Source: Microthrixaceae bacterium (GTDB lineage: Bacteria; Actinomycetota; Acidimicrobiia; Acidimicrobiales; Microtrichaceae). Taken from it: 64,000 nucleotides of DNA. Below, piece after piece: positions 12,044 through 61,100 of the stretch; positions within the stretch are counted from its first letter, which is position 1; each line of letters begins with the position of its first letter. The notes beneath the pieces were generated by a model. That model was given only the letters and a program-made list of their open reading frames with translations. It ran no database searches and had not been told where the DNA came from. The stretch covers positions 186,328-250,327 of the forward strand of contig JBAOHV010000004.1 in the NCBI GenBank assembly GCA_037045265.1. Reading direction: 5' to 3'. The position numbers and the translations under genes were made by a program.

Positions 12044-13396
12044 ATGCTGTGCGAGATCGGCGAGCATCTGACCTCCTGCACCCACCAGACGATCAGCCGT
12101 CACAGCCGAGAAACGTTTGAGGTTGAAACCGCACGCGCCGATACCCCTCGTGTGAGAGAAGGAACGGTCGCTGCAACTGACGGCGAAGAGCAGGCGGACT
12201 TCAGGCGTTGGAGCGGCGAGTTCGTGGATCCTCGCGACGAAAGGGCCTTCCTCGATAGCCAGATCGCCGCGAACCTGAGCCTGTACAGCCGGACGGCGCT
12301 GGTCATCGCCGCGATCCTGATGTCGTTCAGTCTGGTCGACGCGACGTCGCTCGGACTCGGTGCGCTCTGGGGAGCCCTGCTGATCGCGTGTGCAGCCACC
12401 GTGACGCTCGTGCTCATCACCCGCAGCCAGATGCTCCGCCACCCCCAACGGGTGCTCACCGGCAGCCCGTACGGGCTGATCGCCACAACGGAGCTCGTCG
12501 TCCTGGCGACGATGCTCCTGGCAACTGCGCTTCGGCCGGACGACGCCGCGACCAGCGCCCTCAGCTTCGGCGTGGTCATCCTCGGTTCGACCGTCCTGGT
12601 CCCCGGCCGCTTCAGGACCCAGGTGGTGGTCGGATTGCTGGCCATAGCCGGGCTCGGTGTCCTGGCCCTCACGACCCTCTCCGGCGCCCTGAGCCCCGTA
12701 CCGCTCGCTGCCAACCTGGTGCTCGCCCTCGTCTGGGGACTCGGAGTTCGCAGGATGACCGGCCGGGACGCCCGTAGGCGTTGGCATGCCGTCGCAGCAG
12801 CCCAGCGCGCCAACGAACGCCTCGAAGCCGAGCTGGTGGTGGCAGCCCAGCTCCGCTGCGATCTGCAGGTACTGGCCGAACGCGATCCGTTGACGTCGGC
12901 TGCGAACCGACGGGAGTTCTTGCGGGTGGCAGAAGCCATGCTGGCCGACCGCCGCGACGGCGGACGGTTCGCACTGCTCCTGCTCGACGCCGACCGCTTC
13001 AAGTCGATCAACGACCGTTTCGGACATGGGGTCGGAGACGCGGCCCTCGTGGCGATGACCACGTCCGCACGCGCCGCTGTGCGCGACCAGGACCTAGTCG
13101 CTCGGATCGGAGGCGAGGAGTTCGCCGTGCTCCTGCCCGGCATGTCCGAGGAGGCTGCCGCTGTCGTGGCCGAACGGGTACGCAGGTCCATCGCCGAGAC
13201 GCAGGTCCCGGGCGCCGAGCAGGTCGGTCTGAGCGTCTCGATAGGTCTGACAGCAGCGAGACCGGACGACTCCGTCGAGTCGCTGCTCGCGCGAGCCGAT
13301 GACGCGATGTACTCCGCGAAGCACGCCGGCGGCGACCGCTTCCACCGGGCATCCGCGCCGGCTGAGCGAGCGTGGCAACCGGTGCCATCGGCCTGA
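12044..13396 (+). CDS. membrane-anchored diguanylate cyclase (GGDEF domain)
   Basis: Multi-TM N-terminus followed by DPLTSAANRREF...LLLLDADRFKSINDRFGHGVGD...ARIGGEEFAVLLPG (GGEEF). Start is uncertain: ATG 12044 or GTG 12152. Confidence 0.85.
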   Translation: MLCEIGEHLTSCTHQTISRHSRETFEVETARADTPRVREGTVAATDGEEQADFRRWSGEFVDPRDERAFLDSQIAANLSLYSRTALVIAAILMSFSLVDATSLGLGALWGALLIACAATVTLVLITRSQMLRHPQRVLTGSPYGLIATTELVVLATMLLATALRPDDAATSALSFGVVILGSTVLVPGRFRTQVVVGLLAIAGLGVLALTTLSGALSPVPLAANLVLALVWGLGVRRMTGRDARRRWHAVAAAQRANERLEAELVVAAQLRCDLQVLAERDPLTSAANRREFLRVAEAMLADRRDGGRFALLLLDADRFKSINDRFGHGVGDAALVAMTTSARAAVRDQDLVARIGGEEFAVLLPGMSEEAAAVVAERVRRSIAETQVPGAEQVGLSVSIGLTAARPDDSVESLLARADDAMYSAKHAGGDRFHRASAPAERAWQPVPSA

Positions 13397-13403
13397 GCAG
13401 GCC

Positions 13404-14070
13404 ATGTCCGGGCGCTACGATCGGTCGGACATGGAAGCGACGACCGGCATCTTCCAGATATTGGCCGCGGTCATCGCCGTCGGTGGAGCCGCCAAGCTCG
13501 TCGCTCCTGCCGCGTTCACCGAGACCCTCAGGGCTCTCGGCCTGAACGGCGGGGAGCCGGCCGCGAGGACTGCCGGAGCGGTCGAGTTGGCGATCGGGGT
13601 CGGAGCGATCGTGATCGGAGGGTCGGCCGCCGCTCTCGTCGTCGCTGCGGCCTACGCCATCTTCGCAGTCACGGTGGTCAAGGCACGCAAGGTCGGTGCA
13701 GCATCGTGTGGCTGCTTCGGATCCGTCGCTGCACCGCCGAGCACGCTGCACGTGGTCGTCAACTTCGTCTCGGCCCTGTTGGCGCTGGGCGCCGCAGCCA
13801 CCTCACCCCGCGCTGCTGCTCGACGTGCTCGCTGATCAGCCACTTGCCGGGGTGCCGTACCTGGTGCTGCTCGGGGTAGGGGTATGGCTCACCGTGGCTC
13901 TCGACACCGTCGGCGCACAGCTGCTCGACGAGATGACCGCCGTGCGCAGGCTCGGACCGGTCCTGCGCGAGAACGGACACCCCCCGCGTCGCGTGGGCTC
14001 GAAGCACATCGCGCCCCGCTGGATCACGACGACTGGACTGACATGGCATCCGTGCTCGACCGAACCGTGA
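13404..14070 (+). pseudogene. MauE/DoxX-like redox-associated membrane protein, frame break near 13810; 3' end uncertain
   Basis: IFQILAAVIAVGGAAKLVAP...AASCGCFGS...LHVVVNFVSALLALGAAAT, then continues in the 13696 frame: PALLLDVLADQPLAGVPYLVLLGVGVWLTVAL... A C6 run at about 13980 could hide another indel. That indel would give a stop at 14038, 2 nt before the next ATG. Confidence 0.65.
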
Positions 14071-15276
14071 CCTTCCTGGCCGATCGGGTGGACCGTCGCG
14101 GGTTCCTCGGCAAGGCGGCAGTCGTCGGTTCGGCAGCGGTCGCAGCACCGCTCGAGTTCGGCCTCCGTCCCAACAGCGCGGTACGCAGCCATCTGCAACT
14201 GCAACGGTTCGAGCTGTCAGTGCGGTTCGCTCTGCTGCGACGGCTACACCGAGTTCTGCTGCACGCTCACGGGCGCCAACGCGTGCCCACCGGGAACGAT
14301 CACCGCTGGCTGGTGGAAGGTGGACGGCTCGCAGTTCTGCGGCGGGGCCGCCCGCTACTACCTGGACTGCAACGCTCAGTGCGGGTCGTGCGACTGCGGA
14401 TCCAACGGGGTGTGCAGCGGAGCGTGCAGCGGAACACCCTGCGGCTGCGCACAAGGCAACTGCAACAACCGCAAGGCCGGCTGCACCAGGTTCCGCTACG
14501 GCCAGTGCAACCAGCACGTGCGCTGCGTCGGGCCGATCGTCTGCCGGGTGGTCACGTGCGCACCACCTTGGTCGTTCGACCCCTCGTGCAGCACGACCGC
14601 TCGCACCGACGAGGCCACGCGTAGCCACGACCGGCCTTGTCTGAACGAGCCTTTCGGGGCGCTGAACGTCGTCGAGGGCGGCGACGGCACGATCCGCGTC
14701 ACCGGCTGGGCGGTCGCCAACTCCGACTATCAGCGCGCCGGCTTCAGGATCTTCGTCGACGACCAGCTCGCCCAGCACGGTGTGGCCACGCTGCCGCGCC
14801 CCGACGTCCAGCTCGCATATCCGGCGTTCGGCCGGGACACCGGGATCGACGTGACCGTCAACGCCCAGCCCGGCAAGCGACTCGTGTGCCTCTGGGGGGT
14901 CGACCGCCGCAACGGCCGTCAGGCGCTGATCGGAATGCGCGAGGTCACCGTCACCGGTCCGTTCGGTTCGGTCGACGGCTACGACGTGGGCACCGAACCT
15001 GGCGTGATCGTCGTGAGGGGATGGGCGTTGAGCGGACAGCAGCGGCTTCGCCAGGCACGGATCCGGGTGTTCCTCGACACCGACTGGGTGATCGACGTCC
15101 CTACCGACATCCCCCGCTCCGACGTCACCGAGATCTACCCGGGCGCCCACCTGGAGAGCGGGTACCGCATCGCCATACCGGCCACGCAGGGCAAGCACCT
15201 CGTTTGCGTCTGGGGCCGCGACACCGACAGTGGCGCCCAGGGTTTCATCGACGCGAAGGAGGTGGTGGTGCCGTGA
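14043..15276 (+). pseudogene. Tat-secreted cysteine-rich MauA-like (methylamine dehydrogenase light-chain-like) protein fused to two ~100-aa repeats; frame break near 14181
   Basis: MASVLDRTVTFLADRVDRRGFLGKAAVVGSAAVAAPLEFGLRPNSA (twin-arginine signal). Own translation of the next frame: YAAICNCNGSSCQCGSLCCDGYTEFCCTLTGANACPPGTITAGWWKVDGSQFCGGAARYYLDCNAQCGSCDCG...GPIVCRVVTCAPPW... About 26 Cys in about 150 aa. The C-terminal half is an internal duplication. Confidence 0.7.
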
Positions 15277-16118
15277 CCGTCCTGGTGGCGCTCCAGGGCG
15301 TGGTGATCCTCCTGCTCGCGATCCTCGTGGTCGGCCTGTTGCGTTCGCACGCCGAGATCCTGCGTGCGTTGCACGACCTGGGCGTCAACCTGGAGGACGG
15401 CGCCCCGGACAGCGGCCCCGGCAAGTTCGACCTGGCGACCCGCGCCCAGGCTCTGAGCTCGGCCAACCGCCGTGGAGTCGCACCCGGCGGGACCCCGGCC
15501 TCGGAGCGGGTCAGCGAGCACGGCGTGGCCCTGCCCGAGGACGGGCCGCTCGGCGACGCACACGACCTCATGGGCGTCACACCCCTAGGCGACGCTGCGG
15601 CCATCTCGGTGCACGCCGGACAAGGCCTGACACTGCTCGCCTTCCTCACGTCGGGCTGTGCCTCGTGTCTGGACTTCTGGGACGCCTTCCGGAACCCTGC
15701 CAACCGGTCCGTCGGCGGCGCGGCCACGACCCTGGTGGTGCTCACCAGAGGGCCTGGCGAGGAGAGTCCTGCGTCGGTGAAGAACCTGGCCGACCCGGAG
15801 CTGGTGACGATGATGTCCACCGAGGCGTTCGACGACTACTCGGTGCCGATCGCGCCGTACTTCGTCCTGGTCGACGCGGCGGCCGGCCGCATCATCGGTG
15901 AAGGCGCCGCTTCGTCGTTCGACCAGCTGCAATCGCTGCTGACCAAGGCGATGGCCGACGGCGGCTACGGGCTCTCGGCGCCGCGCAGCCGTCGCGAGGT
16001 GCTGCGAGGGCTGCGGCGTGGACCCAGCGCCGACGAGGCGCTCGAGTCAGCGGGCATCGGTCCCGGCCACCCGAGCCTCCACCAGGACCCCCAGAACGAC
16101 CGCTCGGCGGACGGCTGA
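15273..16118 (+). CDS. membrane-anchored thioredoxin-fold thiol-disulfide oxidoreductase (MauD/TlpA-like)
   Basis: The GTG start overlaps the upstream TGA (GTGA at 15273-15276). N-terminal TM VTVLVALQGVVILLLAILVVGLL. CxxC motif LTLLAFLTSGCASCLDFW. Confidence 0.7.
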   Translation: MTVLVALQGVVILLLAILVVGLLRSHAEILRALHDLGVNLEDGAPDSGPGKFDLATRAQALSSANRRGVAPGGTPASERVSEHGVALPEDGPLGDAHDLMGVTPLGDAAAISVHAGQGLTLLAFLTSGCASCLDFWDAFRNPANRSVGGAATTLVVLTRGPGEESPASVKNLADPELVTMMSTEAFDDYSVPIAPYFVLVDAAAGRIIGEGAASSFDQLQSLLTKAMADGGYGLSAPRSRREVLRGLRRGPSADEALESAGIGPGHPSLHQDPQNDRSADG

Positions 16119-16120
16119 AC

Positions 16121-16609
16121 ATGGAGCCACGTCGACTCCGCGCCTACGGCTTGTCGTGCGATCTGCTGCCCGGCTGGGACATCCGCATCGAGCAACGCGA
16201 ACAGTCCGAGGTTCCCGTGCCGGGTTCCACCGAGCCTATGGGTGGCTACACCCACCCCATCCTCCAGGCGGGCACCTCGGCCCTACCGGCGAGGCGTGGC
16301 GACTACGGCTCCGGCTACGTCGAACGCATGACCCACAGCGATGTCTTCGTCTGCCTGGGCGAGTTCGACCGTGCCGACGGCGCCCACCAGATGTTCGAGG
16401 ACGGGATGCCCGCAGCGCTGCAGGGCCGGGACTTCCACCCGGACGCACAGCAGCGCGTCATCGTGGGGATGTGCGGCGCCCAACGCTTCTTCGCCGTCGA
16501 CGGACGGGCGTTCTGCCTCTACGTCGTGCTCGGCTCGTGGCTGCAACGCTCCGCCCTTGTGCCACGCGCCAACCAGCTCCTGGCGTCGATACGGATCGAC
16601 CCGCAGTGA
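16121..16609 (+). CDS. hypothetical protein, no signal peptide, no recognised family
   Basis: 162-aa ORF starting 2 nt after the upstream stop. Position in the operon supports coding. I recognise no motif. Confidence 0.45.
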   Translation: MEPRRLRAYGLSCDLLPGWDIRIEQREQSEVPVPGSTEPMGGYTHPILQAGTSALPARRGDYGSGYVERMTHSDVFVCLGEFDRADGAHQMFEDGMPAALQGRDFHPDAQQRVIVGMCGAQRFFAVDGRAFCLYVVLGSWLQRSALVPRANQLLASIRIDPQ

Positions 16610-16649
16610 CCCACCACCGCTCACCAACGTCTCCTCAAGGAGCTCACCC

Positions 16650-17429
16650 ATGACACTGATCGTCGCGTTGGCCGCCGTGGTCGCCGTCGCCGCAGCCGCC
16701 CGCTCCACCTGGTCCCCCTGCGGCCTCTCGATGCTCTCGACCATCACCCCGATGGCGGAGCGGAGCAGGGGTCGCCGTTGGGGACTGACCGCGGCCTGGT
16801 TCATCCTGGGTGCCACCCTCGGCGGCGCGACCCTGGGCGCGCTGGCCGTGGCTTGTGCTTCCGTCGTCGGCCTGCTCGACCTGCCGGCACGCGCGGTGCT
16901 GGGCACCGCCGCCGTACTGGCCCTCGTCACCGCCGGGATGGACCTGGGGATCGGGACCCGCATGCCGCACCACCGACGCCAGGTCGACGAGCTGTGGCTC
17001 GACCAGTTCCGCTCCTGGGTGTACGGGATCGGCTTCGGTTTCCAGATCGGGACCGGCCTGATGACCTACATCATGACCGCTGCCGTCTATCTGACCGTCA
17101 TGATGGCGGCACTCACCGGGTCGGCTGTGACAGCGATGGCGCTGGCTCTGCTGTTCGGAGCCACCCGAGGCGCAGCCATCCTGCTCGGCGCCGGCCTGAC
17201 CGAGCCGGACCGGCTCCGACGTTTCCACCGCAGGTTCGAAGCACTCGGTCCGGCTGTCCGCCTTGGCGTGATCGGCGTGCAGATCGCGGTTGCAGTCGTG
17301 GCGTCAGGAGCAGCCTGGGGGGCGCTCGGTGCGGTCACAGCGGCGGTCTTCGGCGTCGCTGCGGTGCTCGTCACCCGCGGTGTACAGGCACCAGCAGCCA
17401 ACCCCACCGCGTTGCTCGTGGAGCGCTGA
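16650..17429 (+). CDS. polytopic membrane protein, CcdA/DsbD-like (possible transmembrane reductant conduit)
   Basis: AAGGAG RBS at 16637-16642. About 6 predicted TM segments. The first TM carries STWSPCGLSMLSTITP, resembling the SPC..P motif of CcdA/DsbD-family proteins. Confidence 0.45.
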   Translation: MTLIVALAAVVAVAAAARSTWSPCGLSMLSTITPMAERSRGRRWGLTAAWFILGATLGGATLGALAVACASVVGLLDLPARAVLGTAAVLALVTAGMDLGIGTRMPHHRRQVDELWLDQFRSWVYGIGFGFQIGTGLMTYIMTAAVYLTVMMAALTGSAVTAMALALLFGATRGAAILLGAGLTEPDRLRRFHRRFEALGPAVRLGVIGVQIAVAVVASGAAWGALGAVTAAVFGVAAVLVTRGVQAPAANPTALLVER

Positions 17430-17460
17430 CCGCCGGTCGCGCCGCTGATCGCCCGGTCGA

Positions 17461-18023
17461 TCAGAACGACACCTGCGGCGGAGCGCTGGATGCGTCGGGC
17501 GCGTCGTAGAACTCGCCCTTGACCACGCCCGACATGCCCACGAACAACGACCAGGGGATCGTCACCATCGTGCGGTTCAGCGTCGCACACGCGGTCGTTG
17601 TAGAACTGTCGGGCGAACGCCAGTTGGTCCTCGGTGCGCGAGAGCTCGGCCTGCAGCTGGGCGAAGTTCGTCGACGCCTTCAGGTCGGGGTAGCTCTCTG
17701 CCACGGCGAACAGGTTGGCGAGTGCTGCTCGCATCTCCCCGTCGGCAGCGGCACGCTCCCCCACCGACCGCGCACCCTGTGCGTCGGCACGGGCCTGGGT
17801 GACCGCTTCGAGCGTCTCGCGCTCGTGGCCCATGTAGCCCTTGACCGTCTCGACCAGGTTGGGGATCAGGTCAGCGCGACGCGTACAGCTGCACGTCGAT
17901 CCCTGCCAGGGCCTCCTCCACCGAAACCCTCTGGGTACGCAGCTTGTTCAACGCGACGACCACGAGCATCCCTGTGGCCACCACCAGCACGACCACCACC
18001 AACACCACGATCAGTGTTCCCAT
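17461..18023 (-). pseudogene. lemA: LemA family protein, two frame breaks (about 17575 and 17880)
   Basis: Own translation from ATG 18023 (AGGAGG RBS): MGTLIVVLVVVVLVVATGMLVVVALNKLRTQRVSVEEALAGIDVQLYA / RRADLIPNLVETVKGY MGHERETLEAVTQARA...YPDLKASTNFAQLQAELSRTEDQLAFARQFYND / ...RTMVTIPWSLFVGMSGVVKGEFYDAPD...PPQVSF*. Confidence 0.8.
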
Positions 18024-18060
18024 CAGACGGTCCTCCTAGACCTGGTTCCACCAGGATTCT

Positions 18061-19770
18061 TCACCACGATCCGCCTCCACCACCGCCACCGCCGGAACCA
18101 CCCGAGAAGCCTCCGCCACCGCTGCTGCTCGAAGCTGCCTGGGCGGCCGCGTAGGCGGTCGTCGCGCTCGAAATAGCTCCGTCGAACGACTGGCGCATGG
18201 ATCCGGCGTGGAATTGCCCACTGCCGGCCCACACGACCCACGGCACATCAGGAACCGCTACACCCTGCGCCTCGTACCGGCTCGCCCACGCATCGGCCAC
18301 ACCCAGGGCCGTTGCCCACGACAGGTACCGCGGGTACCAGTCCAGGTGCGCCGCTGCATCGAAGCGTGCCTCGGAAGAGTCGGTGGTGAGGAACCGTGCG
18401 AACCCGCCCGCCCTGGACCAGAGATCCCTTCCCTCGGGTGTACGTACGGTGGCGAGTCCGGACTCGACCATCATGCCCGCGGCGGCGAGCGTGAAGACCG
18501 ACGTGGCAGCCAGCAGCGGCCAGCGCAGCCAACCCGCGTCCACGAAGTATCGACCGACCATGAACAGCGTCGCACCCAGACAGACCCAGCCCAACAGACG
18601 CATCAGCACGCCCGGCCCGGATCGGTGCAGGAAGGTCGAGGCACTCGCGTCGACCTGGGAACGCAAGGCACCCCGGGCCGACGACACGACCCTCCCTGAG
18701 CCCTCGGTGGCCGCGACGACGAAGACCTCGCCCGCCTCGGTCAGCCCGAGCGCCGTGAGAAGTGCGCGCTCGGTCGGGTGGAGATGTTCTCCTTCGAGCG
18801 GCTCGACCACTTCGATCTGCCAGGCCGCGTCGTCGCCGCGCAGGCGCAGCACGCCCCTTTCCGCCAGGTCGAACAAGGTGGCCTGGAGATCGTCGTCGGA
18901 GTGGCGCTCGTCGAGCACCTTCACCCCGACCGCTGGCGGGACCATGAAGGGCGGCTCGAACAGGACGGGGAAGCCCGGCTCCCTCTCGCGGGTGGCCCGC
19001 CACCCCCAGGCGGCAACCCCAGCTGCCAAGACCGCCGCAGCGATCGCCCAGAGCAGATCCCGGTGGCGAGCTGGGGCCATCGGCTCGGCGACGTCGTCAG
19101 CGGCGAAGGCGACGCGGACCGTGACCGGTGTGTACGGCGCCAGCGGCCCGGTCCGCACGCTGAGCGTCGTTCCCTCGACGGTCGCGGTGCAGGGATCGTC
19201 CTTGCCGCTCACACACTCCGCCCTGAGGGGCTCCGCCGGGAGCTCAGCACGCACCGTCGCTTCGCCGATCGACATCTGCCAGCCCGAGCCGACCACATCC
19301 CACCACCACAGCGTCTCGCCGGCCCTGCCAGCTTCGAGCACGTCCTCGGTGGACGACACGATGCGATAGACGTGTTCACCCGCGTCGAGGTACACGTACT
19401 CGTTGCCGATCCGGATCGTGTCTGTGCCCCGGGCACCGTCGATGTGGACGTAGGGCTCGATGACGCCGTCACGCTCCACGGAGTCGACCCGAACCGGGTG
19501 GTCCACGTTCGACCTACGTGGGTCGGCGGTGTCGAAGATCCGGAAGATGCCACGCTTGCCGGCCGGCATCTCGACGGTGATCGTCTCGACCGAGCGAAGA
19601 CGACCGTCCGCCGACAGCTCCATCTTCGAGTCGTAGGTTCTGATCGACGCCGTGTCCTGCTGTTGCTGCCCCCCGAACGGTGAGCCGAACCAGACCGAGG
19701 CGAGGCCCACCAGCACCAACAGCCGTATGGCCCAGGCCACGATTGGACGGCGCTGTCGTCGTGAGCTCAC
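18061..19770 (-). CDS. DUF2207-domain membrane protein (usual LemA partner)
   Basis: Intact 569 aa. N-terminal TM, extracytoplasmic domain, central TM cluster, C-terminal Gly-rich tail SSSSGGGGFSGGSGGGGGGGGSW typical of DUF2207 proteins. Confidence 0.75.
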   Translation of the reverse strand: MSSRRQRRPIVAWAIRLLVLVGLASVWFGSPFGGQQQQDTASIRTYDSKMELSADGRLRSVETITVEMPAGKRGIFRIFDTADPRRSNVDHPVRVDSVERDGVIEPYVHIDGARGTDTIRIGNEYVYLDAGEHVYRIVSSTEDVLEAGRAGETLWWWDVVGSGWQMSIGEATVRAELPAEPLRAECVSGKDDPCTATVEGTTLSVRTGPLAPYTPVTVRVAFAADDVAEPMAPARHRDLLWAIAAAVLAAGVAAWGWRATREREPGFPVLFEPPFMVPPAVGVKVLDERHSDDDLQATLFDLAERGVLRLRGDDAAWQIEVVEPLEGEHLHPTERALLTALGLTEAGEVFVVAATEGSGRVVSSARGALRSQVDASASTFLHRSGPGVLMRLLGWVCLGATLFMVGRYFVDAGWLRWPLLAATSVFTLAAAGMMVESGLATVRTPEGRDLWSRAGGFARFLTTDSSEARFDAAAHLDWYPRYLSWATALGVADAWASRYEAQGVAVPDVPWVVWAGSGQFHAGSMRQSFDGAISSATTAYAAAQAASSSSGGGGFSGGSGGGGGGGGSW

Positions 19771-51602: not shown

Positions 51603-54600
51603 TCAGCTGGCTGTTGCCATCCCTGAACGCGTCGCATCGTTCGACTGCACCGAGCTTTCGGCATCGGTGATAGCACTGCGGATGTGACCGGCGAGCACAC
51701 GCACCGCCGGCTCGAGGACCATCGAGTCGTGGTCCCCGGGGACCTCGGTCACCTGGACCCGCCGACAGTAGGGACCCCAACCGTTGTCGAAGTAGACGAA
51801 GCGACGGTTGATGTCGATCTGGCGGTCAGGTCCGAACACATGAGCAGGCGTGAGACGCGGCCGGTACAAGGTCACGGTGCCCTCGTAGGGACGGACGTCG
51901 TATCGCTCCAGGGCACGGTAGAACGCCGCCTCGATCACCTCCGAGTGCAACGTCGTGTCAGGTCCGACAGCAGGCCCGGCTGCGCGGCGTCGACGCTCCT
52001 TCTCCCATGCGATGCGGTTCCGGGCCCACGACCTGACATACGAGGCACCCTCCTCGCGGATGTTGTCCAGCTGGATCTTGACCCTGTCCGAAACCCTCAG
52101 CGGTGGCTGGTCCGGCAGCGGGGTGTCGAGCAGGACCAGCAGTGACGTCTCCTCACCAGCCGCACGGAGTTGCTGTGCCATCTCGAAGGCGGCGATTCCA
52201 CCACCGGAGAACCCGCCCAGCAGGTATGGCCCGTGGGGCTGCACGCTACGAAGCTCCTCCAGGTACTCCTGGGCCATCTCAACGAAGTCCTCGTGCGGCG
52301 GATCGTCGCCGAACAGACCGCGTGCCTGGATGCCGTAGAAGGGCCTGTCGGCACCGATCTGGTGTGCCAGGTGGCGCAGGTTCAACACGTTGCCGAACAT
52401 GCCCGCAACCAGGAAGAACGGGGTCCGGTCGGATCCGTCACCAGGGTGCAGCGCCACGAGGTACCGGTACCGGGGCTTTGCCGCGACAATGGACGACTCG
52501 CTCGTGAGATCTCCGTCATCGCTCGGGAGGGCTTCCGAGATCAGCTCGGCGCACGCCTCGACCGTCGGGGCTTCGACGAGGACCGAGATCGGGAAGTCGA
52601 CCGAGAAGGTCCGCTTGATCTGGGCGAAGAGGCGCACCGCTATCAGGCTGTGCCCTCCCAGGTCGAAGAAGTTGTCGCGGACACCGACCTGGTCGATGCC
52701 GAGGAGCTCCTGCCACATCACGACGAGCTGCTCCTCCACGTCGTTGCGAGCTGCGACGAACTCGGAGTCGAGCTTCGGTCGACTGAACACCGCGCTCGCT
52801 TCGCCGCCGGCGCTCGAGCCGATCTGCTCAGCCGCGATGAGGTCGCCCTGGTGTGACAGCGCCGGGAGGTCGAGCGAGGTCACGTAGACCACCGGGTCCA
52901 CATCGGGGCCGATGGTCCGGAGGAACTCCCGTCCCCCCTCGATCGGGCGGATGCCCTGGCGGAGGTTGCTCTCGAGAGCCAGCTCGGGAAGGGTCCGTTG
53001 CCGGGCGCCGGCCGATCCGTCGAAGTCGACCTCGGCCGCGAGCGCAGGACGCCCTCCGACCTCGAGACGTCCTTCCAGCCGCTTGACGGCGAACCCTTCG
53101 ACCTCGACGAGCACGCGCCCGTCACGGTCGCAGAGCAATACGTCGAACGACGCGACGCCGCTCTTCTCGGACGTTCCCGACAGCACCTCGGCGACCGCCG
53201 TCAGCTCGGACGGCAACCGATCGTGGATGCGGACCCGGCGATACTCGACCGGCACCCACAGCCGGTCACCCGTGTAGCCGGGGATGAGGTCCATGGCGAA
53301 CCCGGTGCCCAGGTCGACGAGCGCCGGATGCAGCCCCATCGACAGGTCCTCTGTGTCGTACGGGGCCTTCAACTTCAGCTCTGCCACAGCGGTTCTGTCG
53401 CCGTAGCGGACCTCGGTCACCACGTCCCAGCGAGGACCGAACCTGAGGTGGTCCTGCTGGCGGGTCCGCGTGGCGCCACGACGATCGCATCCGGCGAGGA
53501 CCCTGGCCAGCTCGACCGAGTCCGCCGGATCCAGTGGGTGCAGCAGCAGGTCCGCCTCGCCGGTGAGGCGCCAACCGACCCTGACCGAGGTCACCTCGCC
53601 CTCGCCGCCGTAGCTGGTGACCGATACGCGCTCACGGATCTCGAAGCTGTAGCCGGACTCCGTGGGCCGGAGGACCACTTCGGCGCTCACGTTCCCGTCG
53701 GCATCTACCGCCAGGGGACGCAGGAAGGTCAGATCGCGCATCTCGAACGGGCGCTCCAGTCCGAGCTCGGCGAGCGACGCTCGGGCCAGCTCCAGGTATG
53801 TCGCTCCCGCGACCACCGCGTCACCGTCGCCTGTGCGGTGCTCGTCGAGCGGCCAGGAATCGCGCTCGTTCCAGTCGATCGAGAGCCTGACCACCCCGTC
53901 TTGCGCCCTGCGCAACTCACCGAAGAAGGGATGAACCGCTTGACGCAGCTCGACGTCCTCGATGTCGCCTGACGAGTCAACCGCAGCGGCAGCTGCCGCC
54001 ATGCCGACCTCGTCCCAGACCCCCCAGTTGACGGCGCGGACGTGGCGATCGCCACGGGCACGGCGTGACTCGGCGAACGCGTTGAGGAAGGAGTTCGCAG
54101 CGACGTAGTCGACCTGTCCGATCGGAGCCGTGACGGTGCTGGTCGAGGAGAACACGACGAACAGATCGAGGTGATCGGATGCGGTCGCGGTCTCCAGTAC
54201 GAGGGTCCCGTACACCTTGGGGGCGAGGACGTCCTCCATCTGCATGGGCGACTTGGTGACCAGCAGGGCGTCGTCGATCACCCCCGCCGCGTGCACCACT
54301 CCGTTCAGGGTTCCGAACTCGCTGCGGACCCTGGCGACCGCGGAGTTGAGAGACTCCGGATCTGTCACGTCACCCTCGACCACGATGACCTCGGCGCCCT
54401 CCTCCTCGAGGCTGCGCACCCCGCGGATCCGCACTGCCGTCGGGTGATCGTTACCGAGACGACCGAGAACCTCGTCCCAGGTATCCCTCGGCGGCAGGCC
54501 ACGCCGTGCCAGCAGGGCCACGCGGGCGCCACGCTCGCGGTACAACGCTTCGGCCACGCTCAGACCGATGCCGCCCAGGCCTCCGGTGATCAGCACGACG

Positions 54601-57600
54601 CCGTGTCGGCGCAACACCGCACGATCGGGCTCCGGCAGACGGGTCCTGCGCACGTCGCGCACGTAGCGTCTGTCGCCACGGAGCGCCACCACCGAATCCT
54701 CGAGAGGTGCTCGCACTTCGGCGACCACCTCGTCGATCAGGGAGAACTCGGTGATCGCCGCCTCGGATGTCGCCGAGCGAATACGCCCCATGATCGACCC
54801 GGCCTGTCGCCGACCAACACCGACGGCATCAGCCACCTGCGCCGGGTCGAGGTCGAAGGTCGAGACGCTGACGTCGGCGAACTCCCGGGGGATCACCTGC
54901 ACGGGCCCGAGGACCGTCGCCTGCTCGGGGAACGGCACGGCGTCGGAACCGGGAACCGATTGGGAGCCCATGGTCGCCACCGAGATGGCGAGGCTCCGCT
55001 GCACGCCGGCCGAGGCCCAGGCCTGCGCCAGATAGACGAGGCTCTGGAAGCCGAGCTCCTGGTTCCGATGGAAGAAGCTGCTTCCGGGCCGGAAGTCGCG
55101 GTCGTCGGTGGCCAGCAACGAGAGGTGCGCCACCCGGTCGGGCAGCCGGTCCGTTCGCACCAGGTCCTTCACCAGGCTCTCGTAACCCGCCAGTCCGAGC
55201 TCGGGACTCAACACGTACTCGTCGTCAGACACCGCTCTGAAGAGGTCGCCCATCCGAACCACGACGACGGAGTCGCCGGTTGCACGAAGCTCGGCGACGA
55301 CCTCGTCGGCGAAGCCGGCTGCATCGGCGAGGACCAACCAACGGTTGGGGCCGTCGACGGCATCCTCACGGTCCTTGCTCTTCCAGACCGGCTTCCAGGA
55401 CCACCGATCCACGTCGCTCTCGCGGCTGACGAACGCCAGATCGTCGGATTCGGTGACCCCGGCACCTGGAGCGATGAAGAACGTCTGGGTCTGGAACGGG
55501 TACGTCGGAAGGCCCACGGTCCGGCGTCCATCGGCGGGGAACCATCGGTCGGCCTCGATGGTCGAGCCCGCCGCCCAGATCCGACCCACCGCTGTCAGAA
55601 GGGCCGCGTTGTCGTCTGTCTCCTCCTCGGGGTGACGCATCGCCGGCACGGCAACCTGGTTCGACCTGACCGCCGTGGGGTGGGCCCTCACCAGCGACGA
55701 CAGGGTCTTTCCGGGACCGACCTCGAGAAGAACCCGCGGGCCGGCGGCGGCGAGAGTCGCCACGTCGTCGGCGAAGCGGACAGTCGAGCGCAGGTGCCGG
55801 ACCCAGTACTCGGGATCCGTCGCCTGCTCCGTCGTGATCCAGGTGCCGGTGGTGTTCGACACCCAGGGGATCGTCGGCGGATGCAACTCGATACCGCGCA
55901 GGTAGTCGCCGAACTGCTCCAGGACCGGGTCCAGCAGGCGGCTGTGGACAGGAGTCGTGACCTGCACCGGCAACGGCTCGATGCCGCTCTCGCGGATCTC
56001 CTGTTCGAACAGGTCCAGGCTCGCCTGCGGACCGGAGACGACCACCACGTCGGGCGCGTTGACCACCGCCAGGTCCAGCGCCAGACGTTCGACCGCCTCG
56101 GCCACGTCGTCTGGTGTGAGCGGCACCGCCACCGCTGCTCCTTCGACGGTGTCCATCAGACGGCCACGGAGAACGACCAGACCTAGGCAGTCCTCGAAGG
56201 AGATGGTGCCTGCCACACAGGCCGCCGTGTTCTCGCCCAGGCTGTGCCCGACGAGCGCCGAAGGTTCGAGTCCCCAGCTCATCAGCAGGTGCGCGAGCGC
56301 ATGCTCGATGATGAAGATCAGCGGCAGCTGATGCGTCATGGACGCGAGTCGGGTGTCGAGCTCCGGGCTCCTGTCCTCACCCAGCAGGAGATCGGCGAGG
56401 TCCAGCTGGTGCCTGTCCCTGAGGAGGCCCAGACCGCGGTCGACCTGAGCTGCGAACGCCGGTTCGCAGCGGTGGAGATCGGCCCCCATGCCCAGATGCT
56501 GGGATCCGCCACCGGGGAACATGAACGTGAGTCCGAGTTCAGCGGTGGTGGCGGTGTGGGTCGGGAGACGACGTACGTCCGCGGAGCGCAGCAGCACGAT
56601 CGCGTCGGCGACGTCGCGCACGGCGAGGACTCTGCGCTCGTCGAAGTGGTGTCGTCCCACGAACAGCGTGCGTGCGACGTCCTCGATCGGCAGGTCGAGG
56701 TTGTCCGCCAGGTGATCGGCCAGTCGGACGCCGGCTTCGTCGAGTGCTCCCCGGCTACGCGCCGACAGTGTCAGCAGGTGCCACCGCTCAGATTCCGCTG
56801 TCCCTGGTTCGCCCGAGGGGTCGCGACGTTCTGGCTCTGCGGGGGCCTCCTCGAGGACTGCGAAGGCGTTGGTGCCACCGACACCGAGCGAGTTGACCCC
56901 GGCCCGGCGCGGTCCGTTGGAGCCGCTGGTCCATGGCGTGAGGTGGTCGTTCACCACGAAGGGGGTGTCGTCCAGCTCGAGGTTCGGGTTGGGTCGCTCG
57001 AAGTTCAGGCTCGCGGGCAGCGCACCGTGATGCAGCGACAACGCGACCTTGATCAGACCGGCGGCACCGGCGGCAGTGTCGAGGTGCCCGATGTTGGTCT
57101 TCACACTGCCGATCCGACACGAGCCGGTCACGGTGGGTCCCAGGTCGAACGCTTGGGCGAGCGCTGCGACCTCGATGGGGTCCCCCATCGGGGTGCCGGT
57201 GCCGTGGCACTCGACGTACTGGATCGAGTCCGCGTCCACATCGGACACGGCGATCGCCTCGGAGACGCATGCCGCCTGGCCGTCGACCGACGGCGCCAGG
57301 TACCCGACCTTCTGGTCGCCGTCGTTGTTGACAGCGGTTCCTTTGATCACCGCGTAGATGCGGTCACCGTCATCGAGGGCGTCGTCGAGTCTCCGGAGTG
57401 CGACCACTCCGGCGCCCGAACCGAAGACCGTTCCCTGGGAACGGTGGTCGAACGCTCGGCAGTGCCCATCCGGCGAGAGCACCTCGCCCTCGTGGTACAC
57501 GTAGCCCTGCCCGTGGGGGATCTCGATCGTCGATCCCCCGGCGAGGGCGAGGTCGCACTCACCGCTGAGCAGGTGCTGCACCGCCAGGTGGGTGGCGACC

Positions 57601-58142
57601 AGCGAGGTCGAGCACGCCGTCTGCACGTTCACGGACGGCCCACGGAGGTTCAACGAGTAGCTGGCCCTGGTTGCGAGGAAGTCCTTGTCGTTGCCCGTGT
57701 GGCGCAGGAGGAACACACCGACGTCGCGGACGAGGTCAGGGTTCGAGAGCAGGTTCCTCATGAAGTAGGACCCCATGCCGCAGCCGGCGAACACTCCGAT
57801 CGCTCCGTCGAACGACGACGGAACGTGGCCGGCGTCCTCCATGGCCTCCCAGGCGGCCATGAGGAAGTGCCGGTGCTGGGGATCCATGATCCCCGCTTCC
57901 TTGGGCGACAGCCCGAAGAAGTCGGCGTCGAAGTCGAACACGCCATCGAGTGGAGCTGCTGAACGGACGTAGTTCGGCGAGCGGAGCTCTGCCTCGCCGA
58001 CGCCTGCTTCCACGAGCTCCTGCTCGCTGAGCTCGCGGATGCTCTCGACGCCGTCGACCAGGTTGCGCCAGTAGGCAGTCGGGTTCGCTGCACCTGGTAG
58101 GTGCGCTGCGAGTCCGACGATCGCTATGTCGTTGTCAGCCAT
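51603..58142 (-). CDS. type I polyketide synthase, KS-AT-KR-DH-ACP-TE (PfaA/HglE-like KS)
   Basis: Intact 2179 aa. KS: DKDFLATRASY, VQTACSTSLVA, ECHGTGT, NIGHL. AT: GHSLGE. KR: VVLITGGLGGIG, HAAGVIDDA, VDYVAANSF. DH: HPFFGEL...LDEHRTGDGDAVVAGATYLE. Carrier: FFDLGGHSLIAVRL. TE: LLGGFSGGG. Confidence 0.9.
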   Translation of the reverse strand: MADNDIAIVGLAAHLPGAANPTAYWRNLVDGVESIRELSEQELVEAGVGEAELRSPNYVRSAAPLDGVFDFDADFFGLSPKEAGIMDPQHRHFLMAAWEAMEDAGHVPSSFDGAIGVFAGCGMGSYFMRNLLSNPDLVRDVGVFLLRHTGNDKDFLATRASYSLNLRGPSVNVQTACSTSLVATHLAVQHLLSGECDLALAGGSTIEIPHGQGYVYHEGEVLSPDGHCRAFDHRSQGTVFGSGAGVVALRRLDDALDDGDRIYAVIKGTAVNNDGDQKVGYLAPSVDGQAACVSEAIAVSDVDADSIQYVECHGTGTPMGDPIEVAALAQAFDLGPTVTGSCRIGSVKTNIGHLDTAAGAAGLIKVALSLHHGALPASLNFERPNPNLELDDTPFVVNDHLTPWTSGSNGPRRAGVNSLGVGGTNAFAVLEEAPAEPERRDPSGEPGTAESERWHLLTLSARSRGALDEAGVRLADHLADNLDLPIEDVARTLFVGRHHFDERRVLAVRDVADAIVLLRSADVRRLPTHTATTAELGLTFMFPGGGSQHLGMGADLHRCEPAFAAQVDRGLGLLRDRHQLDLADLLLGEDRSPELDTRLASMTHQLPLIFIIEHALAHLLMSWGLEPSALVGHSLGENTAACVAGTISFEDCLGLVVLRGRLMDTVEGAAVAVPLTPDDVAEAVERLALDLAVVNAPDVVVVSGPQASLDLFEQEIRESGIEPLPVQVTTPVHSRLLDPVLEQFGDYLRGIELHPPTIPWVSNTTGTWITTEQATDPEYWVRHLRSTVRFADDVATLAAAGPRVLLEVGPGKTLSSLVRAHPTAVRSNQVAVPAMRHPEEETDDNAALLTAVGRIWAAGSTIEADRWFPADGRRTVGLPTYPFQTQTFFIAPGAGVTESDDLAFVSRESDVDRWSWKPVWKSKDREDAVDGPNRWLVLADAAGFADEVVAELRATGDSVVVVRMGDLFRAVSDDEYVLSPELGLAGYESLVKDLVRTDRLPDRVAHLSLLATDDRDFRPGSSFFHRNQELGFQSLVYLAQAWASAGVQRSLAISVATMGSQSVPGSDAVPFPEQATVLGPVQVIPREFADVSVSTFDLDPAQVADAVGVGRRQAGSIMGRIRSATSEAAITEFSLIDEVVAEVRAPLEDSVVALRGDRRYVRDVRRTRLPEPDRAVLRRHGVVLITGGLGGIGLSVAEALYRERGARVALLARRGLPPRDTWDEVLGRLGNDHPTAVRIRGVRSLEEEGAEVIVVEGDVTDPESLNSAVARVRSEFGTLNGVVHAAGVIDDALLVTKSPMQMEDVLAPKVYGTLVLETATASDHLDLFVVFSSTSTVTAPIGQVDYVAANSFLNAFAESRRARGDRHVRAVNWGVWDEVGMAAAAAAVDSSGDIEDVELRQAVHPFFGELRRAQDGVVRLSIDWNERDSWPLDEHRTGDGDAVVAGATYLELARASLAELGLERPFEMRDLTFLRPLAVDADGNVSAEVVLRPTESGYSFEIRERVSVTSYGGEGEVTSVRVGWRLTGEADLLLHPLDPADSVELARVLAGCDRRGATRTRQQDHLRFGPRWDVVTEVRYGDRTAVAELKLKAPYDTEDLSMGLHPALVDLGTGFAMDLIPGYTGDRLWVPVEYRRVRIHDRLPSELTAVAEVLSGTSEKSGVASFDVLLCDRDGRVLVEVEGFAVKRLEGRLEVGGRPALAAEVDFDGSAGARQRTLPELALESNLRQGIRPIEGGREFLRTIGPDVDPVVYVTSLDLPALSHQGDLIAAEQIGSSAGGEASAVFSRPKLDSEFVAARNDVEEQLVVMWQELLGIDQVGVRDNFFDLGGHSLIAVRLFAQIKRTFSVDFPISVLVEAPTVEACAELISEALPSDDGDLTSESSIVAAKPRYRYLVALHPGDGSDRTPFFLVAGMFGNVLNLRHLAHQIGADRPFYGIQARGLFGDDPPHEDFVEMAQEYLEELRSVQPHGPYLLGGFSGGGIAAFEMAQQLRAAGEETSLLVLLDTPLPDQPPLRVSDRVKIQLDNIREEGASYVRSWARNRIAWEKERRRRAAGPAVGPDTTLHSEVIEAAFYRALERYDVRPYEGTVTLYRPRLTPAHVFGPDRQIDINRRFVYFDNGWGPYCRRVQVTEVPGDHDSMVLEPAVRVLAGHIRSAITDAESSVQSNDATRSGMATAS

Positions 58143-58181
58143 GTTCCTCTGGGCCTGTGGTGGTCGTGAAGTTCGGGATGG

Positions 58182-61100
58182 TCAGCTGCTGCGCACGCGC
58201 CGTCGCTGCAGGTTCTCGCGCCTGCGAGCAGCGCGGTCGGCGCTCGCCTGACGCAGCGATGCACCGCCGTCGCCCGACAGCGAGTCCGAGAACGAGCGCA
58301 CAGTCGGGTGCCGGTAGAGCTCGGTCAACGCGATGGGCCGCTCGAGCAGCTCCTTCAGCCGACGGTGCATGCGCACGATCAACAGTGAATGACCGCCGAT
58401 GTCGAAGAAGTTGTCGTCGATGCCGATTCCGCTGCGTCCGAGGGTCTCCTCCCAGACCGACAGCACCAGCCGCTCGGTCTCGTTCGACGCTTCGGCCGCC
58501 GGCGAGGCGCTGTCACGCCGCGCCAAGTCGCCGAGCGACGGCAGGGCGTTGCGGTCGATCTTGCCGTTCGGGGTGTGGGGCAGGTCCGCGAGCAGCACAA
58601 GGTGACCGGGGACCATGACGTCGGGCAGCACACTGCGCAGACGGTCCTTGAGCTCGGCGGCATCGAGGGTGGCTCCCGCCGAAGCGGACGCGTAGGCGAC
58701 GAGCTGCTGATCGCCCGGCGAGTCCTCGCGGACCGCTGCAACGCATTCGCGCACACCTGGGCAGCGCCCGAGCTGCGCCTCGATCTCGCCCAGCTCGATC
58801 CGGTAGCCACGGATCTTGACCTGGTGATCGATTCGGCCCAGGAACTCCAGGAGCCCACTTCCGTCGGCCTGTTCTCGCCAACGGGCCAGGTCACCTGTCA
58901 GGTACATGCGATGGTCACCGCCGCGGAACGGGTCGGCGACGAAGCGCTCGGCTGTGAGCTCCGGCCGTTCGTGGTAGCCGCGCACCACGCCGAGACCGCC
59001 GATCCACAGCTCGCCAGCGACACCCGGCGGAACGGGCTGGTGGTTGCGGTCCAGTATGTAGATCCGGGTGTTGGCTATCGGTGTCCCGATCGGGATGATG
59101 TTCAGATCGCCGTGCAGGGGCCACGTGGTCGACCAGATGGTCGTCTCGGTCGGACCGTACATGTTCGTGACCTTGCCGCTGAGTGAGCGGGTGCGCAGCT
59201 CGTCCGCCAGTGCGACCGGGAAGGCTTCGCCGCCGACGAACAGGTGCTCCACCGAGGCGAGCGCGTCGCGCGACTCTTCCTGCATGCTGAGCATGCGTGC
59301 CATCGACGGGGTGCACTGCATGTGGGTGACCCCGTGGCGTGTCAGCTGGGAGGCGACCGACTGGTCGAGTGCCGCCGGCTGCGCCTCGGGATCGGCCTGT
59401 GCCCCTGCCCCTGCGTTGGACTCACGTCGGATGCGGTCGAGCAACGGGAGCGAATCGAGCACCTCGTCGGTGTCGATGCCGAAGTCGATGAGACAAGCGA
59501 TCTCATCGACACCGATGCCCTTGAGCTTGTCGACGGTCTCGCGGCAGCGCTCAGGCGTTCCGAAGAGCCCTGACGTCTCGTAGTAGCGCAGGAAGGCGAA
59601 CTCGAGCACCGCGTCCATCTCGTCGTCACCCAGGTCGTGGAAGACGTCGTCGTTCAGGTCGTCTGCAGTCCGGGGAGCGGCGCCACCGGGGCGCTGGAAG
59701 GCCGGGAAGCTCCACGCGTAGTCGCGCAGCAGCGAGGCGGAGGTGCCCAGGTAGTCCTTGAGCGGACCGCGGACCTTCTCGCGAACGACATCTTCGTCCT
59801 CGCCGACGAACGTGTGAAGCATCAGGCTGACGATGCCGGCGTCGGGGTCGAACCCGGCTTCGGCACGAGCCTGACGGTAGGCCTCGATCTTCGGCGCGAG
59901 CTGCTCGATCGACTGCCCGAGCAGGTGGGTCAGCACGTTCGCACCCACCCTTCCGGCCTGGACGTAGGTGTCCGGGTTGCCGGCGGTGGTCACCCATGCC
60001 GGCACTTCCTCCTGCACCGGTCGGGGCAAGGTGCGAACCGGAACCTCGGCACCGTCGACGCCGATGAAGGTCACCGTCTCCCCCCGCCACAGACGACGCA
60101 GCTGATCGAGGCCCTCGAACATCTTGGCCTTGGCGTCCTTGTAGTTCTGCGGACGCAGCACGAAGTCGTTGGGCTGCCACCCCGACGCCACCGAGATGCC
60201 GACACGGCCGTCGGACAGGTTGTCCACGACGCTCCACGCCTCGGCCACGCGGATCGGGTGCTCCAGCGGCATGACCACGGACCCGGAGCGGATCTTGACG
60301 CGCTCGGTGATCGTCGCGATCGCCGCGCTGGTCACTGCCGGCTGCGGGTAGAGCCCACCGAAGTCGTGGAAGTGCCGCTCGGGGGTCCAAACTGCGGTGA
60401 AGTCGTGCCGGTCGGCGAATCGGGCCCCGTCGAGCAGGAGGCGATAGCGGTCCGAACCTGCACCGGTGCTCGCGTCACCGGAGAAGTAGAACAGCGAGAA
60501 GTCCATCGGCAGCTGTGGGTGCTGCTCGACGAAGATGCCCTGGTCCTCGTCGTCCTCGTCGTCATGGCGGTCACGGTCGAGGTAGACGACGACGCTGAAG
60601 CCGCGTGCCAGGGTGTAGAGGAGCTCCAGAACCGAGATGTCGAACGACAACGAGGTGACCGCGAACCAGGTCGCCGGCAGCTCGTGGGCAACCCGCTCGT
60701 CCATTCCCTCGAAGAAGTTGACGACGTTGCCGTGCTCGATGAGCACGCCTTTGGGGAGACCCGTGCTGCCCGAGGTGTAGATGCAGTAGGCCAGGTTCGA
60801 CGGCGACACGTCGACCATCGGCCTGGTCGTCGGCCGCGAAGCGATCAGCTCACGATCCTCATCGAGCGACACCACGGTGATGTGCTCGCTCACGTCGAGC
60901 GGGAGCGTGTCACGCTGGGCCGACTGCGTTAGAACGACCTCACACCCGCTGTCGTTGATCATGTGCTCGAGCCGGTTGGCTGGGTAGACGGGGTCGAGCG
61001 GCACGTAGGCACCACCGGCCTTGTGGACACCGAGCACCGCCACGACGAGGTCGATGCCACGGGTGACGTGGACTCCGACGAGGTCGTCCGGGCCGACTCC

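Follow-up and report, generated by a model that had tools for sequence, protein, structure and literature searches.

A probable dedicated oxidative-folding operon for a cysteine-rich Tat substrate in Acidimicrobiia

Introduction

How is an exported bacterial protein with 26 cysteines folded, and does the presence of a mauE gene beside it make that protein a relative of MauA, the light chain of methylamine dehydrogenase (MADH)? Both questions are raised by five genes, all on the forward strand, at positions 13404-17429 of a 64,000-nucleotide stretch of contig JBAOHV010000004.1 from a Microthrixaceae bacterium (the whole stretch is called the window below). The window is high in GC (~68%), and a protein that is 100% identical to the product of the fifth gene carries the label Microthrixaceae bacterium. 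Gene 1 (13404-14041) encodes a MauE-family membrane protein, 211 aa long when the extra bases at 13814 and 13980 are left out. Gene 2 (14043-15276) starts one base past the MauE stop codon and encodes, when intact, a 410-aa cysteine-rich protein with a signal for twin-arginine translocation (Tat). It overlaps through GTGA with gene 3 (15273-16118), which encodes a 281-aa thioredoxin-like (Trx-like) protein. Gene 4 (16121-16609) encodes a 162-aa protein, and gene 5 (16650-17429) a multi-pass membrane protein of 259 aa. Intergenic spacings are 1, -4, 2 and 40 nt. Reading of the frames, together with intact copies on other contigs, bears out the original prediction of five co-directional, tightly packed genes; that prediction, made from the letters of the window, took gene 2 to be an orphan MauA-like protein accompanied by its own maturation kit.

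MauE has only recently been proposed as a third major bacterial disulfide-forming enzyme, in a 2026 preprint (10.64898/2026.03.05.709764). We find that gene 2 is not a relative of the MADH light chain. The reading that we put forward, and consider probable, is that the operon is an oxidative-folding unit dedicated to a single substrate, a surface domain of new fold with 13 disulfides, and that it is specific to Acidimicrobiia.

Results

The operon is a module conserved in the class Acidimicrobiia. Helper genes were scored by tblastn in 80 related genome loci, 49 of which had full flanks. Across all 80, the Trx-like gene was detected in 70, the 162-aa gene in 68 (68-69), MauE in 64 and the membrane protein of gene 5 in 46. 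Among the 49 fully flanked loci, the Trx-like and 162-aa genes were present in 44, MauE as well in 42, in each of which the Trx-like gene is syntenic with it, and the membrane protein in 31. The MauE, Tat/cysteine-rich, Trx-like and 162-aa proteins thus occur together in ~90% of these loci and the six-helix protein in 63%. By combination, all four helpers accompany the cysteine-rich gene in 31 loci, gene 5 alone is missing from 11, and both MauE and gene 5 are missing from 2, leaving the Trx-like and 162-aa genes there; the other 5 loci are lone paralogs. Homologs of gene 2 number more than 1000, all of them unnamed or labelled "TAT signal protein", and come from Microthrixaceae, Iamiaceae, Rhabdothermincola, Aquihabitans and other Acidimicrobiia. 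Clustering of neighbouring open reading frames (ORFs), using a crude coding filter based on GC content at third codon positions that lost many real genes, yielded no further neighbour family shared by more than 15 loci and no conserved haem peroxidase/MauG-like, flavoprotein or radical-SAM partner. A GGDEF cyclase gene ends at 13396, 7 nt upstream of gene 1, as had been observed before; it was considered as a possible member of the module and excluded, as it occurs in only 6 of the 80 loci, and its proposed relevance as a neighbour does not hold.

Gene 1 encodes a MauE protein, as first proposed (PF07291; E = 1.9e-11, 44.8 bits against a cut-off of 27). The codons of its active site, C102-G-C104-F-G, lie at 13707-13721, and in 67 orthologs each of the residues K31, E61, C102, G103, C104, F105 and G106 reaches a conservation of 90% or more. 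Gonzalez et al. (bioRxiv 2026, 10.64898/2026.03.05.709764) reported that MauE from two phyla substitutes for DsbB in an Escherichia coli dsbB deletion, and described a functional signature in which F-G comes right after the CXC and the first and second helices contribute, respectively, a conserved Lys and a conserved Glu near the predicted quinone site. The MauE of the window bears this full DsbB-like signature (K, E and CGCFG), and we propose that it is a disulfide-generating oxidase, as its sequence would predict.

The same study concluded that MauE probably acts via a thioredoxin-fold partner (10.64898/2026.03.05.709764), and gene 3 encodes a candidate for this role. The only NCBIfam family matched by the Trx-like protein is MauD (TIGR02661; E = 2e-5), and 13 of 18 orthologs match this model weakly (best E = 5.9e-7). 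The profile of its family matches the thioredoxin-fold structure 3ewl_A with the CxxC aligned (E = 0.008). Both cysteines of this motif, C129-A-S-C132 (15657-15668), are invariant, and a single hydrophobic segment at residues 3-21 predicts one N-terminal transmembrane helix. We propose that gene 3 encodes a membrane-anchored, MauD-like thioredoxin-fold protein that is a candidate DsbA-like carrier. A membrane-anchored thioredoxin fold with a CASC motif was indeed what had been predicted, and it holds with an invariant CxxC and with MauD, matched below the family cut-off, as the only named relative. The idea of an oxidase-carrier pair beside a cysteine-rich client has a forerunner: earlier genome mining in Streptomyces found MauE and MauD genes beside cysteine-rich precursors and drew the same kind of inference (PMC7794033).

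The Trx-like protein has two further conserved motifs, a juxtamembrane LLRSHAEILRxLHxLG (15273-15390) and a C-terminal AGIxPGxxxL (16040-16100). Neither is part of the thioredoxin fold, and MauE or the gene 5 protein may dock there. Three relatives (P0099, P0153 and P0188) are annotated as MauE fused to the cysteine-rich protein. Such fusion ORFs might have served as Rosetta-stone evidence, and were set aside because the 1-nt gap between the two genes makes fusions by gene calling likely.

The putative substrate, or client, begins with a Tat signal peptide (residues 1-48; 14187 is its last base and 14043 its first, with an extra base at 14180). It matches the TAT signal model TIGR01409 at 20.4 bits against a cut-off of 16.7, and R18, R19, A46, Y47, A48 and A49 are invariant in 40 homologs, residues 46-48 forming an A-Y-A signal-peptidase motif. 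The cysteine-rich domain follows (residues 49-205; 14188-14658) and holds the invariant W90 and W91. All 26 of its cysteines lie within residues 51-199, and 26/26 are invariant in 40 close homologs. This domain alone is represented by 448 representative clusters in a search of 1.84 billion representatives, and has no match in Pfam, NCBIfam or PDB sequences, the last searched by phmmer and with the family profile. When AlphaFold was given the full-length protein and 40 close homologs, the cysteine-rich domain stayed unmodelled, with a predicted local distance difference test score (pLDDT) below 50. With 114 more diverse sequences, AlphaFold2 (AF2) gave a confident model of the domain (pLDDT 94.2; predicted template-modelling score 0.88), for which Foldseek found no neighbour at E <= 0.001 in the PDB or BFVD, the top PDB match having E = 4.5 and a template-modelling score of 0.15. 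As modelled, the domain (~155 aa) is a fold not seen in the PDB.

The rest of the protein consists of two tandem Ig/FN3-like beta-sandwich repeats (residues 204-305 and 306-410; 14653-15273). Both are modelled by AF2 with pLDDT >90, and they match tandem FN3/Ig modules of Ihog, RbmA and transglutaminase C-terminal domains in Foldseek (E ~1e-6). Lengths of the homologs cluster at ~410, 515, 615 and 715 aa, which indicates from 2 to ~5 C-terminal repeats. The TIGR01409 match and the modelled repeats agree with the earlier description of a twin-arginine signal and a cysteine-rich module fused to two repeats. Given the Tat signal, and the cell-wall-binding modules found in relatives, the cysteine-rich protein most likely ends up on the cell surface or is released from it. 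These modules, CWB2 and SLH, stand at the ends of relatives P0137 and P0102.

Relatives have 14 to 28 cysteines in the domain, and the number is even for 122 of the 133 examined. Cysteines also come and go in pairs across the 133 domain sequences (C51/C60, r = 0.95; C53/C65, r = 0.97; C124/C128, r = 0.92). Even parity and paired gain or loss argue for disulfides rather than metal sites, and the 26 cysteines of the window's domain therefore probably form 13 disulfides. Residues other than cysteine are also near-invariant or invariant in the 40 close homologs, namely W90, W91, R104, D108, N110, K144, F150-R-Y-G-Q154, R168, D179, R187 and H195. In the wider set, W90 and W91 are kept in 133/133 sequences and position 176 is W or Y. 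So many invariant polar residues suggest that the domain does more than act as a scaffold, and that it has a binding or catalytic site.

It is also conceivable that the 26 cysteines are metal ligands and the protein is of the metallothionein, copper-storage or Fe-S kind, that the metal is loaded in the cytoplasm before the folded protein is exported by Tat, and that the thiol-redox genes keep thiols reduced or handle the metal. The density of cysteines is very high, and a Tat signal is typical of proteins that fold or acquire a cofactor before they are exported. PF13386, which the gene 5 protein resembles (see below), also includes metal-transporter-like proteins. However, an even number of cysteines and their paired gain or loss are predicted by disulfides and not by metal sites, no classical Fe-S or CxxC-metal spacing motifs are present in the domain, the MauE of the operon has the full oxidase signature, and AF2 gives a confident, compact fold without a ligand. 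We therefore regard metal binding as unlikely.

A diverged MauA-type light chain, or another protein with a Trp-derived quinone cofactor (tryptophan tryptophylquinone [TTQ] or cysteine tryptophylquinone [CTQ]), which would dispense with a heavy chain and owe its maturation to the MauE/MauD-like kit, is less likely still. The resemblance that prompts this idea is a 13-column motif at the cofactor Trp that is common to both proteins (NACPPGTITAGWW and TNCPPGTKLATASWV; the MauA reference sequence was checked against PDB 1mg2_B). W90 and W91 are retained throughout the 133 relatives, with W or Y at position 176, and MauA, too, has a Tat signal and MauE/MauD neighbours. Of the Trp residues that might correspond to the TTQ pair W57 and W108, W90/W91 are invariant and W176 is mostly conserved, and only the first Trp falls within the alignable motif. 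Homology was sought at several levels. PF02975 is not matched at E <= 0.1, and the only NCBIfam match of the protein is the TAT signal. The family profile retrieves no light chain of MADH or of aromatic amine dehydrogenase (AADH) from PDB sequences at E <= 10. With hhalign, the comparison with 1mg2_B reaches a probability of 0.7% over 13 columns only (NaCPPGT--taGWW against TNCPPGTKLATASWV), and the BLASTP E value is 0.15. Foldseek with the pLDDT-94 model yields no MADH or AADH light chain, although dozens exist in the PDB. Thus, Pfam, phmmer and profile searches of the PDB, hhalign, BLASTP and Foldseek together lead us to reject MauA homology. Gene 2 is not a methylamine dehydrogenase relative, as far as sequence and model can tell, and a short motif resemblance alone remains.

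The partners that such a light chain would be expected to have are also missing. No MauG, MauB, cupredoxin, LodB-type flavoprotein or radical-SAM gene is present in the annotated window or conserved in related loci. Specifically, mauB, mauG and cupredoxin genes were found neither in the ~61 kb of annotated window nor as conserved genes in the 80 related loci, whole genomes not having been searched. Annotation of the window combined precomputed Pfam matches for ~4-35 and 40-61.5 kb with a Pfam scan of seven ORFs elsewhere; it excludes ~61.5-64 kb, part of which is a gene resembling a nonribosomal peptide synthetase (NRPS). The original prediction had correctly pointed to the absence of a heavy chain, MauG and amicyanin. 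Its central proposal of a MauA-like protein, however, fails at each of the levels listed above, and the YYLDCN that it lined up with MauA YRDCCG is unaligned in every comparison. An orphan MauE is also nothing unusual, as only ~10% of MauE-bearing species have MauA and ~90% do not (bioRxiv 10.64898/2026.03.05.709764). Its closing idea of a self-contained, extracytoplasmic protein that is either disulfide-knotted or bears a cross-linked cofactor survives in part: the disulfide-knotted half fits well, and nothing beyond the invariant W90/W91 favours the cofactor.

Gene 5 encodes a 259-aa protein with ~6 helices by hydropathy, and its more than 1500 homologs are unnamed or annotated as "MFS permease". 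Four of 27 orthologs match PF13386 (DsbD_2; best E = 1.4e-6) and one matches PF02683 (E = 0.0033); the family profile has no PDB sequence match and no NCBIfam match, selenoprotein models included. We regard the protein as a remote putative member of the DsbD_2/CcdA superfamily, and the earlier assignment as a CcdA/DsbD-like protein of about six transmembrane helices stands in this remote sense, through the orthologs that match PF13386. Its sole conserved redox residue is Cys24 (16719-16721), within the motif RSTWSPCG, and none is conserved in the second half of the protein.

In 27 of 46 orthologs, an in-frame TGA aligns with Cys24. As aligned, these proteins start abruptly at GESMLSS, directly behind the TGA in every case, and the frame extends upstream as ...RSTWSP. 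The 27 TGA forms (for example, L034, 11031-11093; L022, 7551-7613; and L082, 6348-6410) thus read RSTWSP-TGA-GESMLSS, against RSTWSPCGLSMLS in the 19 Cys forms, and the sequence that flanks the TGA is conserved on both sides. Two hairpins follow the TGA, the first of them invariant and the second with a GGN loop 33 nt past the UGA. Compensatory changes occur at three pairs of helix 2, 98.3% of cells are paired, and 0/500 shuffles reach the observed value. In the 19 Cys forms, by comparison, pairing extends to only ~4 of 6 and 3.8 of 7 positions, so that the hairpin resembling a selenocysteine insertion sequence (SECIS) is missing, and TCN or ACC codons are used where the selenocysteine (Sec) forms always have AGC. 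No Rfam family matches the SECIS-like hairpin. These are the features by which bacterial selenoproteins are usually recognised computationally, and the gene 5 family is not among the 119 prokaryotic selenoprotein families tabulated in 2026 (PMC13188914). The Sec-form orthologs of gene 5 therefore appear to be a family of membrane selenoproteins, within the DsbD superfamily, that has not been described before. We take Actinomarina to belong to Acidimicrobiia. A 2026 preprint (10.64898/2026.04.03.716425) reported selC, selA, selD and a divergent selB in Actinomarina. The organism of the window has the Cys form. The exchange of Cys and Sec, together with the hairpin, marks residue 24 as the reactive centre of the protein.

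In the loci inspected, gene order follows the Sec or Cys state of gene 5. Sec-form loci (such as L034, L022 and L025) have the order Trx-like gene, membrane protein gene, 162-aa gene; Cys-form loci (such as L005-L013) have the 162-aa gene first, or the membrane protein gene on the opposite strand.

The 162-aa protein of gene 4 has no signal peptide, transmembrane segment or conserved Cys, and is presumably cytoplasmic. It has no Pfam or PDB sequence match, family profile included, in agreement with its first description as a cytoplasmic protein of no recognised family. Conserved residues include G18, W19, P56, G60, D61 and G63. It might act together with the gene 5 protein or with the Tat substrate.

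The window itself breaks the frames of genes 1 and 2. Comparison with contig L001, which is 99.85% identical over 21 kb and carries all five genes unbroken, traces the breaks to three extra bases, T 13814, C 13980 and G 14180. The original prediction had noted two breaks; breaks are indeed present but number three, and judging from the intact contigs they are not real lesions. The one at 13980 had been overlooked, and MauE ends at 14041 and not at 14070. In all, ten indel differences separate the window from L001, every one a single-base insertion in the window (5104, 6302, 10223, 11595, 13814, 13980, 14180, 17442, 17593 and 17884), with no deletions, at a rate of ~1 per 2 kb and in unrelated genes. 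At least those at 11595, 13814, 13980 and 14180 disrupt frames (an ABC transporter, MauE and the cysteine-rich gene). This suggests systematic insertion errors in the assembly, and other apparent frameshifts in the window warrant equal caution. An intact 211-aa MauE is found on L001-L004, and the intact 410-aa cysteine-rich protein (P0001) on 15 near-identical contigs from several samples. Since the genes are intact elsewhere and the differences are scattered and insertion-only, the locus is not dead and the breaks look like assembly errors. A decaying pseudogene cluster, for which the two breaks in MauE and the one in the cysteine-rich gene could speak, is hardly credible and was dropped after comparison with L001-L004, given that all ten indels are of this one kind and spread across unrelated genes, that intact proteins occur on at least 15 contigs from several samples, and that constraint on the genes is obvious in hundreds of genomes.

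The motifs that had been quoted were all located (RRGFLGK, CGSLCCDGYTEFCC, CPPGTITAGWW, CGCFG, CASC and WSPCGLSML), and the count of about 26 cysteines was confirmed. No sigma-70 promoter or intrinsic terminator consensus was found in 13000-18200, a result that is uninformative for this phylum. On the minus strand, at ~17460-19770, two genes for membrane proteins (LemA and DUF2207) converge on the end of the operon; the near-identical L001 and L002 have this pair too. Farther away, also on the minus strand (51603-62936), a polyketide synthase gene (2179 aa) adjoins the NRPS-like gene (1584 aa), the latter with formyltransferase, two AMP-binding and luciferase-like domains. This region has the look of a cluster for a lipid or natural product, with no relation to the operon.

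Discussion

Our results suggest how a protein with 26 cysteines might be folded outside the cell. As a MauE and a Trx-like protein adjoin a 26-Cys client, an oxidase-carrier pair is the simplest reading of the operon. The client would be exported by Tat and cleaved after A-Y-A, with its cysteine-rich domain carried on a stalk of two Ig/FN3-like repeats. MauE would act like DsbB, its extracytoplasmic CGC pair being reoxidised via the membrane quinone, and would oxidise the CxxC of the membrane-anchored MauD-like thioredoxin, which would in turn hand disulfides to the cysteines of the client. Gene 5, with its one reactive Cys or Sec, and the small cytoplasmic protein could supply a corrective arm, by reduction or isomerisation, that a 13-disulfide fold would need.

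Several observations weigh against this proposal. Each step of the electron path is a proposal made from sequence, and the disulfide state of the client is inferred from cysteine parity. The Trx-like protein scores far below the MauD cut-off (23.9 bits against an equivalog cut-off of 188.6), and the gene 5 protein of the window itself has no Pfam match at E <= 0.1. Folding outside the cell is an odd match for Tat, whose cargo has usually folded beforehand; MauA, however, is a precedent for the combination. Paralogs of the cysteine-rich protein at L041, L059, L061, L069 and L078 have none of the four helpers within 7 kb, and are presumably second copies that rely on a kit encoded at another place in the genome. 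Of the complete loci, 37% lack gene 5, which so is either dispensable or located elsewhere in those genomes. Finally, it has one conserved Cys where CcdA and DsbD need two, so that the known CcdA-type relay cannot work.

This single conserved Cys or Sec is the reason that we propose an isomerase or resolving role for gene 5 rather than a classical two-Cys CcdA relay. Taken a step further, the operon and its relatives may combine a private oxidative-folding system with a new membrane selenoprotein family, in which a single Sec or Cys nucleophile shuffles or resolves wrong disulfides at the membrane surface. We put this forward tentatively, as a possibility that is on balance doubtful. If true, it would represent a selenium-dependent disulfide isomerase in bacteria.

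These findings bear on both the MauE pathway and the annotation of a widespread protein. The dedicated folding operon that we propose would be a natural unit of client plus machinery, with an oxidase, a carrier, a probable corrective arm and a 26-Cys client, in which the MauE pathway could be dissected. They also correct the tempting but wrong annotation of the client as an orphan MADH light chain. The client domain is strongly conserved, with its 448 representative clusters and matches in several hundred Acidimicrobiia genomes, and has neither a family name nor a structural neighbour; once its ligand or reaction is known, a widespread surface protein of a lineage common in the environment and in wastewater could be annotated. 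The switch between Cys and Sec pinpoints the active residue of gene 5 and adds an apparent new membrane selenoprotein family with a clean SECIS-like element.

Several known systems resemble parts of this operon. The CcdA/DsbD/ScsB proteins (PF02683 and PF13386) are multi-pass, as is gene 5, some of whose orthologs remotely match PF13386. As in CcdA, the first hydrophobic region holds the reactive residue directly after a Pro (SPC). However, gene 5 has one conserved Cys or Sec against two for the known relay, the residue is Sec in 27 of the 46 orthologs, and no structure is matched by sequence. DsbL/DsbI is a dedicated Dsb pair for arylsulfate sulfotransferase, in which an oxidase and a carrier are likewise encoded beside a single client; the protein families differ, and the client here has many more disulfides. 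With the generalist MauE pathway (10.64898/2026.03.05.709764), DsbB-DsbA and VKOR, the MauE of the window shares a membrane oxidase of the four-helix type, with a reactive Cys pair and a Lys and Glu near the predicted quinone site, and it, too, is proposed from its sequence to act through a thioredoxin-fold partner. Unlike the generalist MauE, which serves housekeeping, it lies in an operon with one extremely cysteine-rich client, and its activity is a prediction.

The closest comparison is with the MauE/MauD pair of the mau system. MauE has the same CGCFG in both, each has a membrane-anchored thioredoxin-fold partner with a CxxC, and in each the substrate is a small cysteine-rich domain with a Tat signal that is encoded beside the pair. 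MauA, which is exported by Tat, contains six disulfides, whereas 13 are inferred here. The Trx-like protein lies far below the MauD equivalog cut-off, the client is not homologous to MauA by sequence, profile or fold, MauB, MauG and amicyanin have no counterpart here, and TTQ chemistry is improbable. Instead, the operon has two additional conserved genes, for a DsbD-like Cys/Sec membrane protein and for the 162-aa protein.

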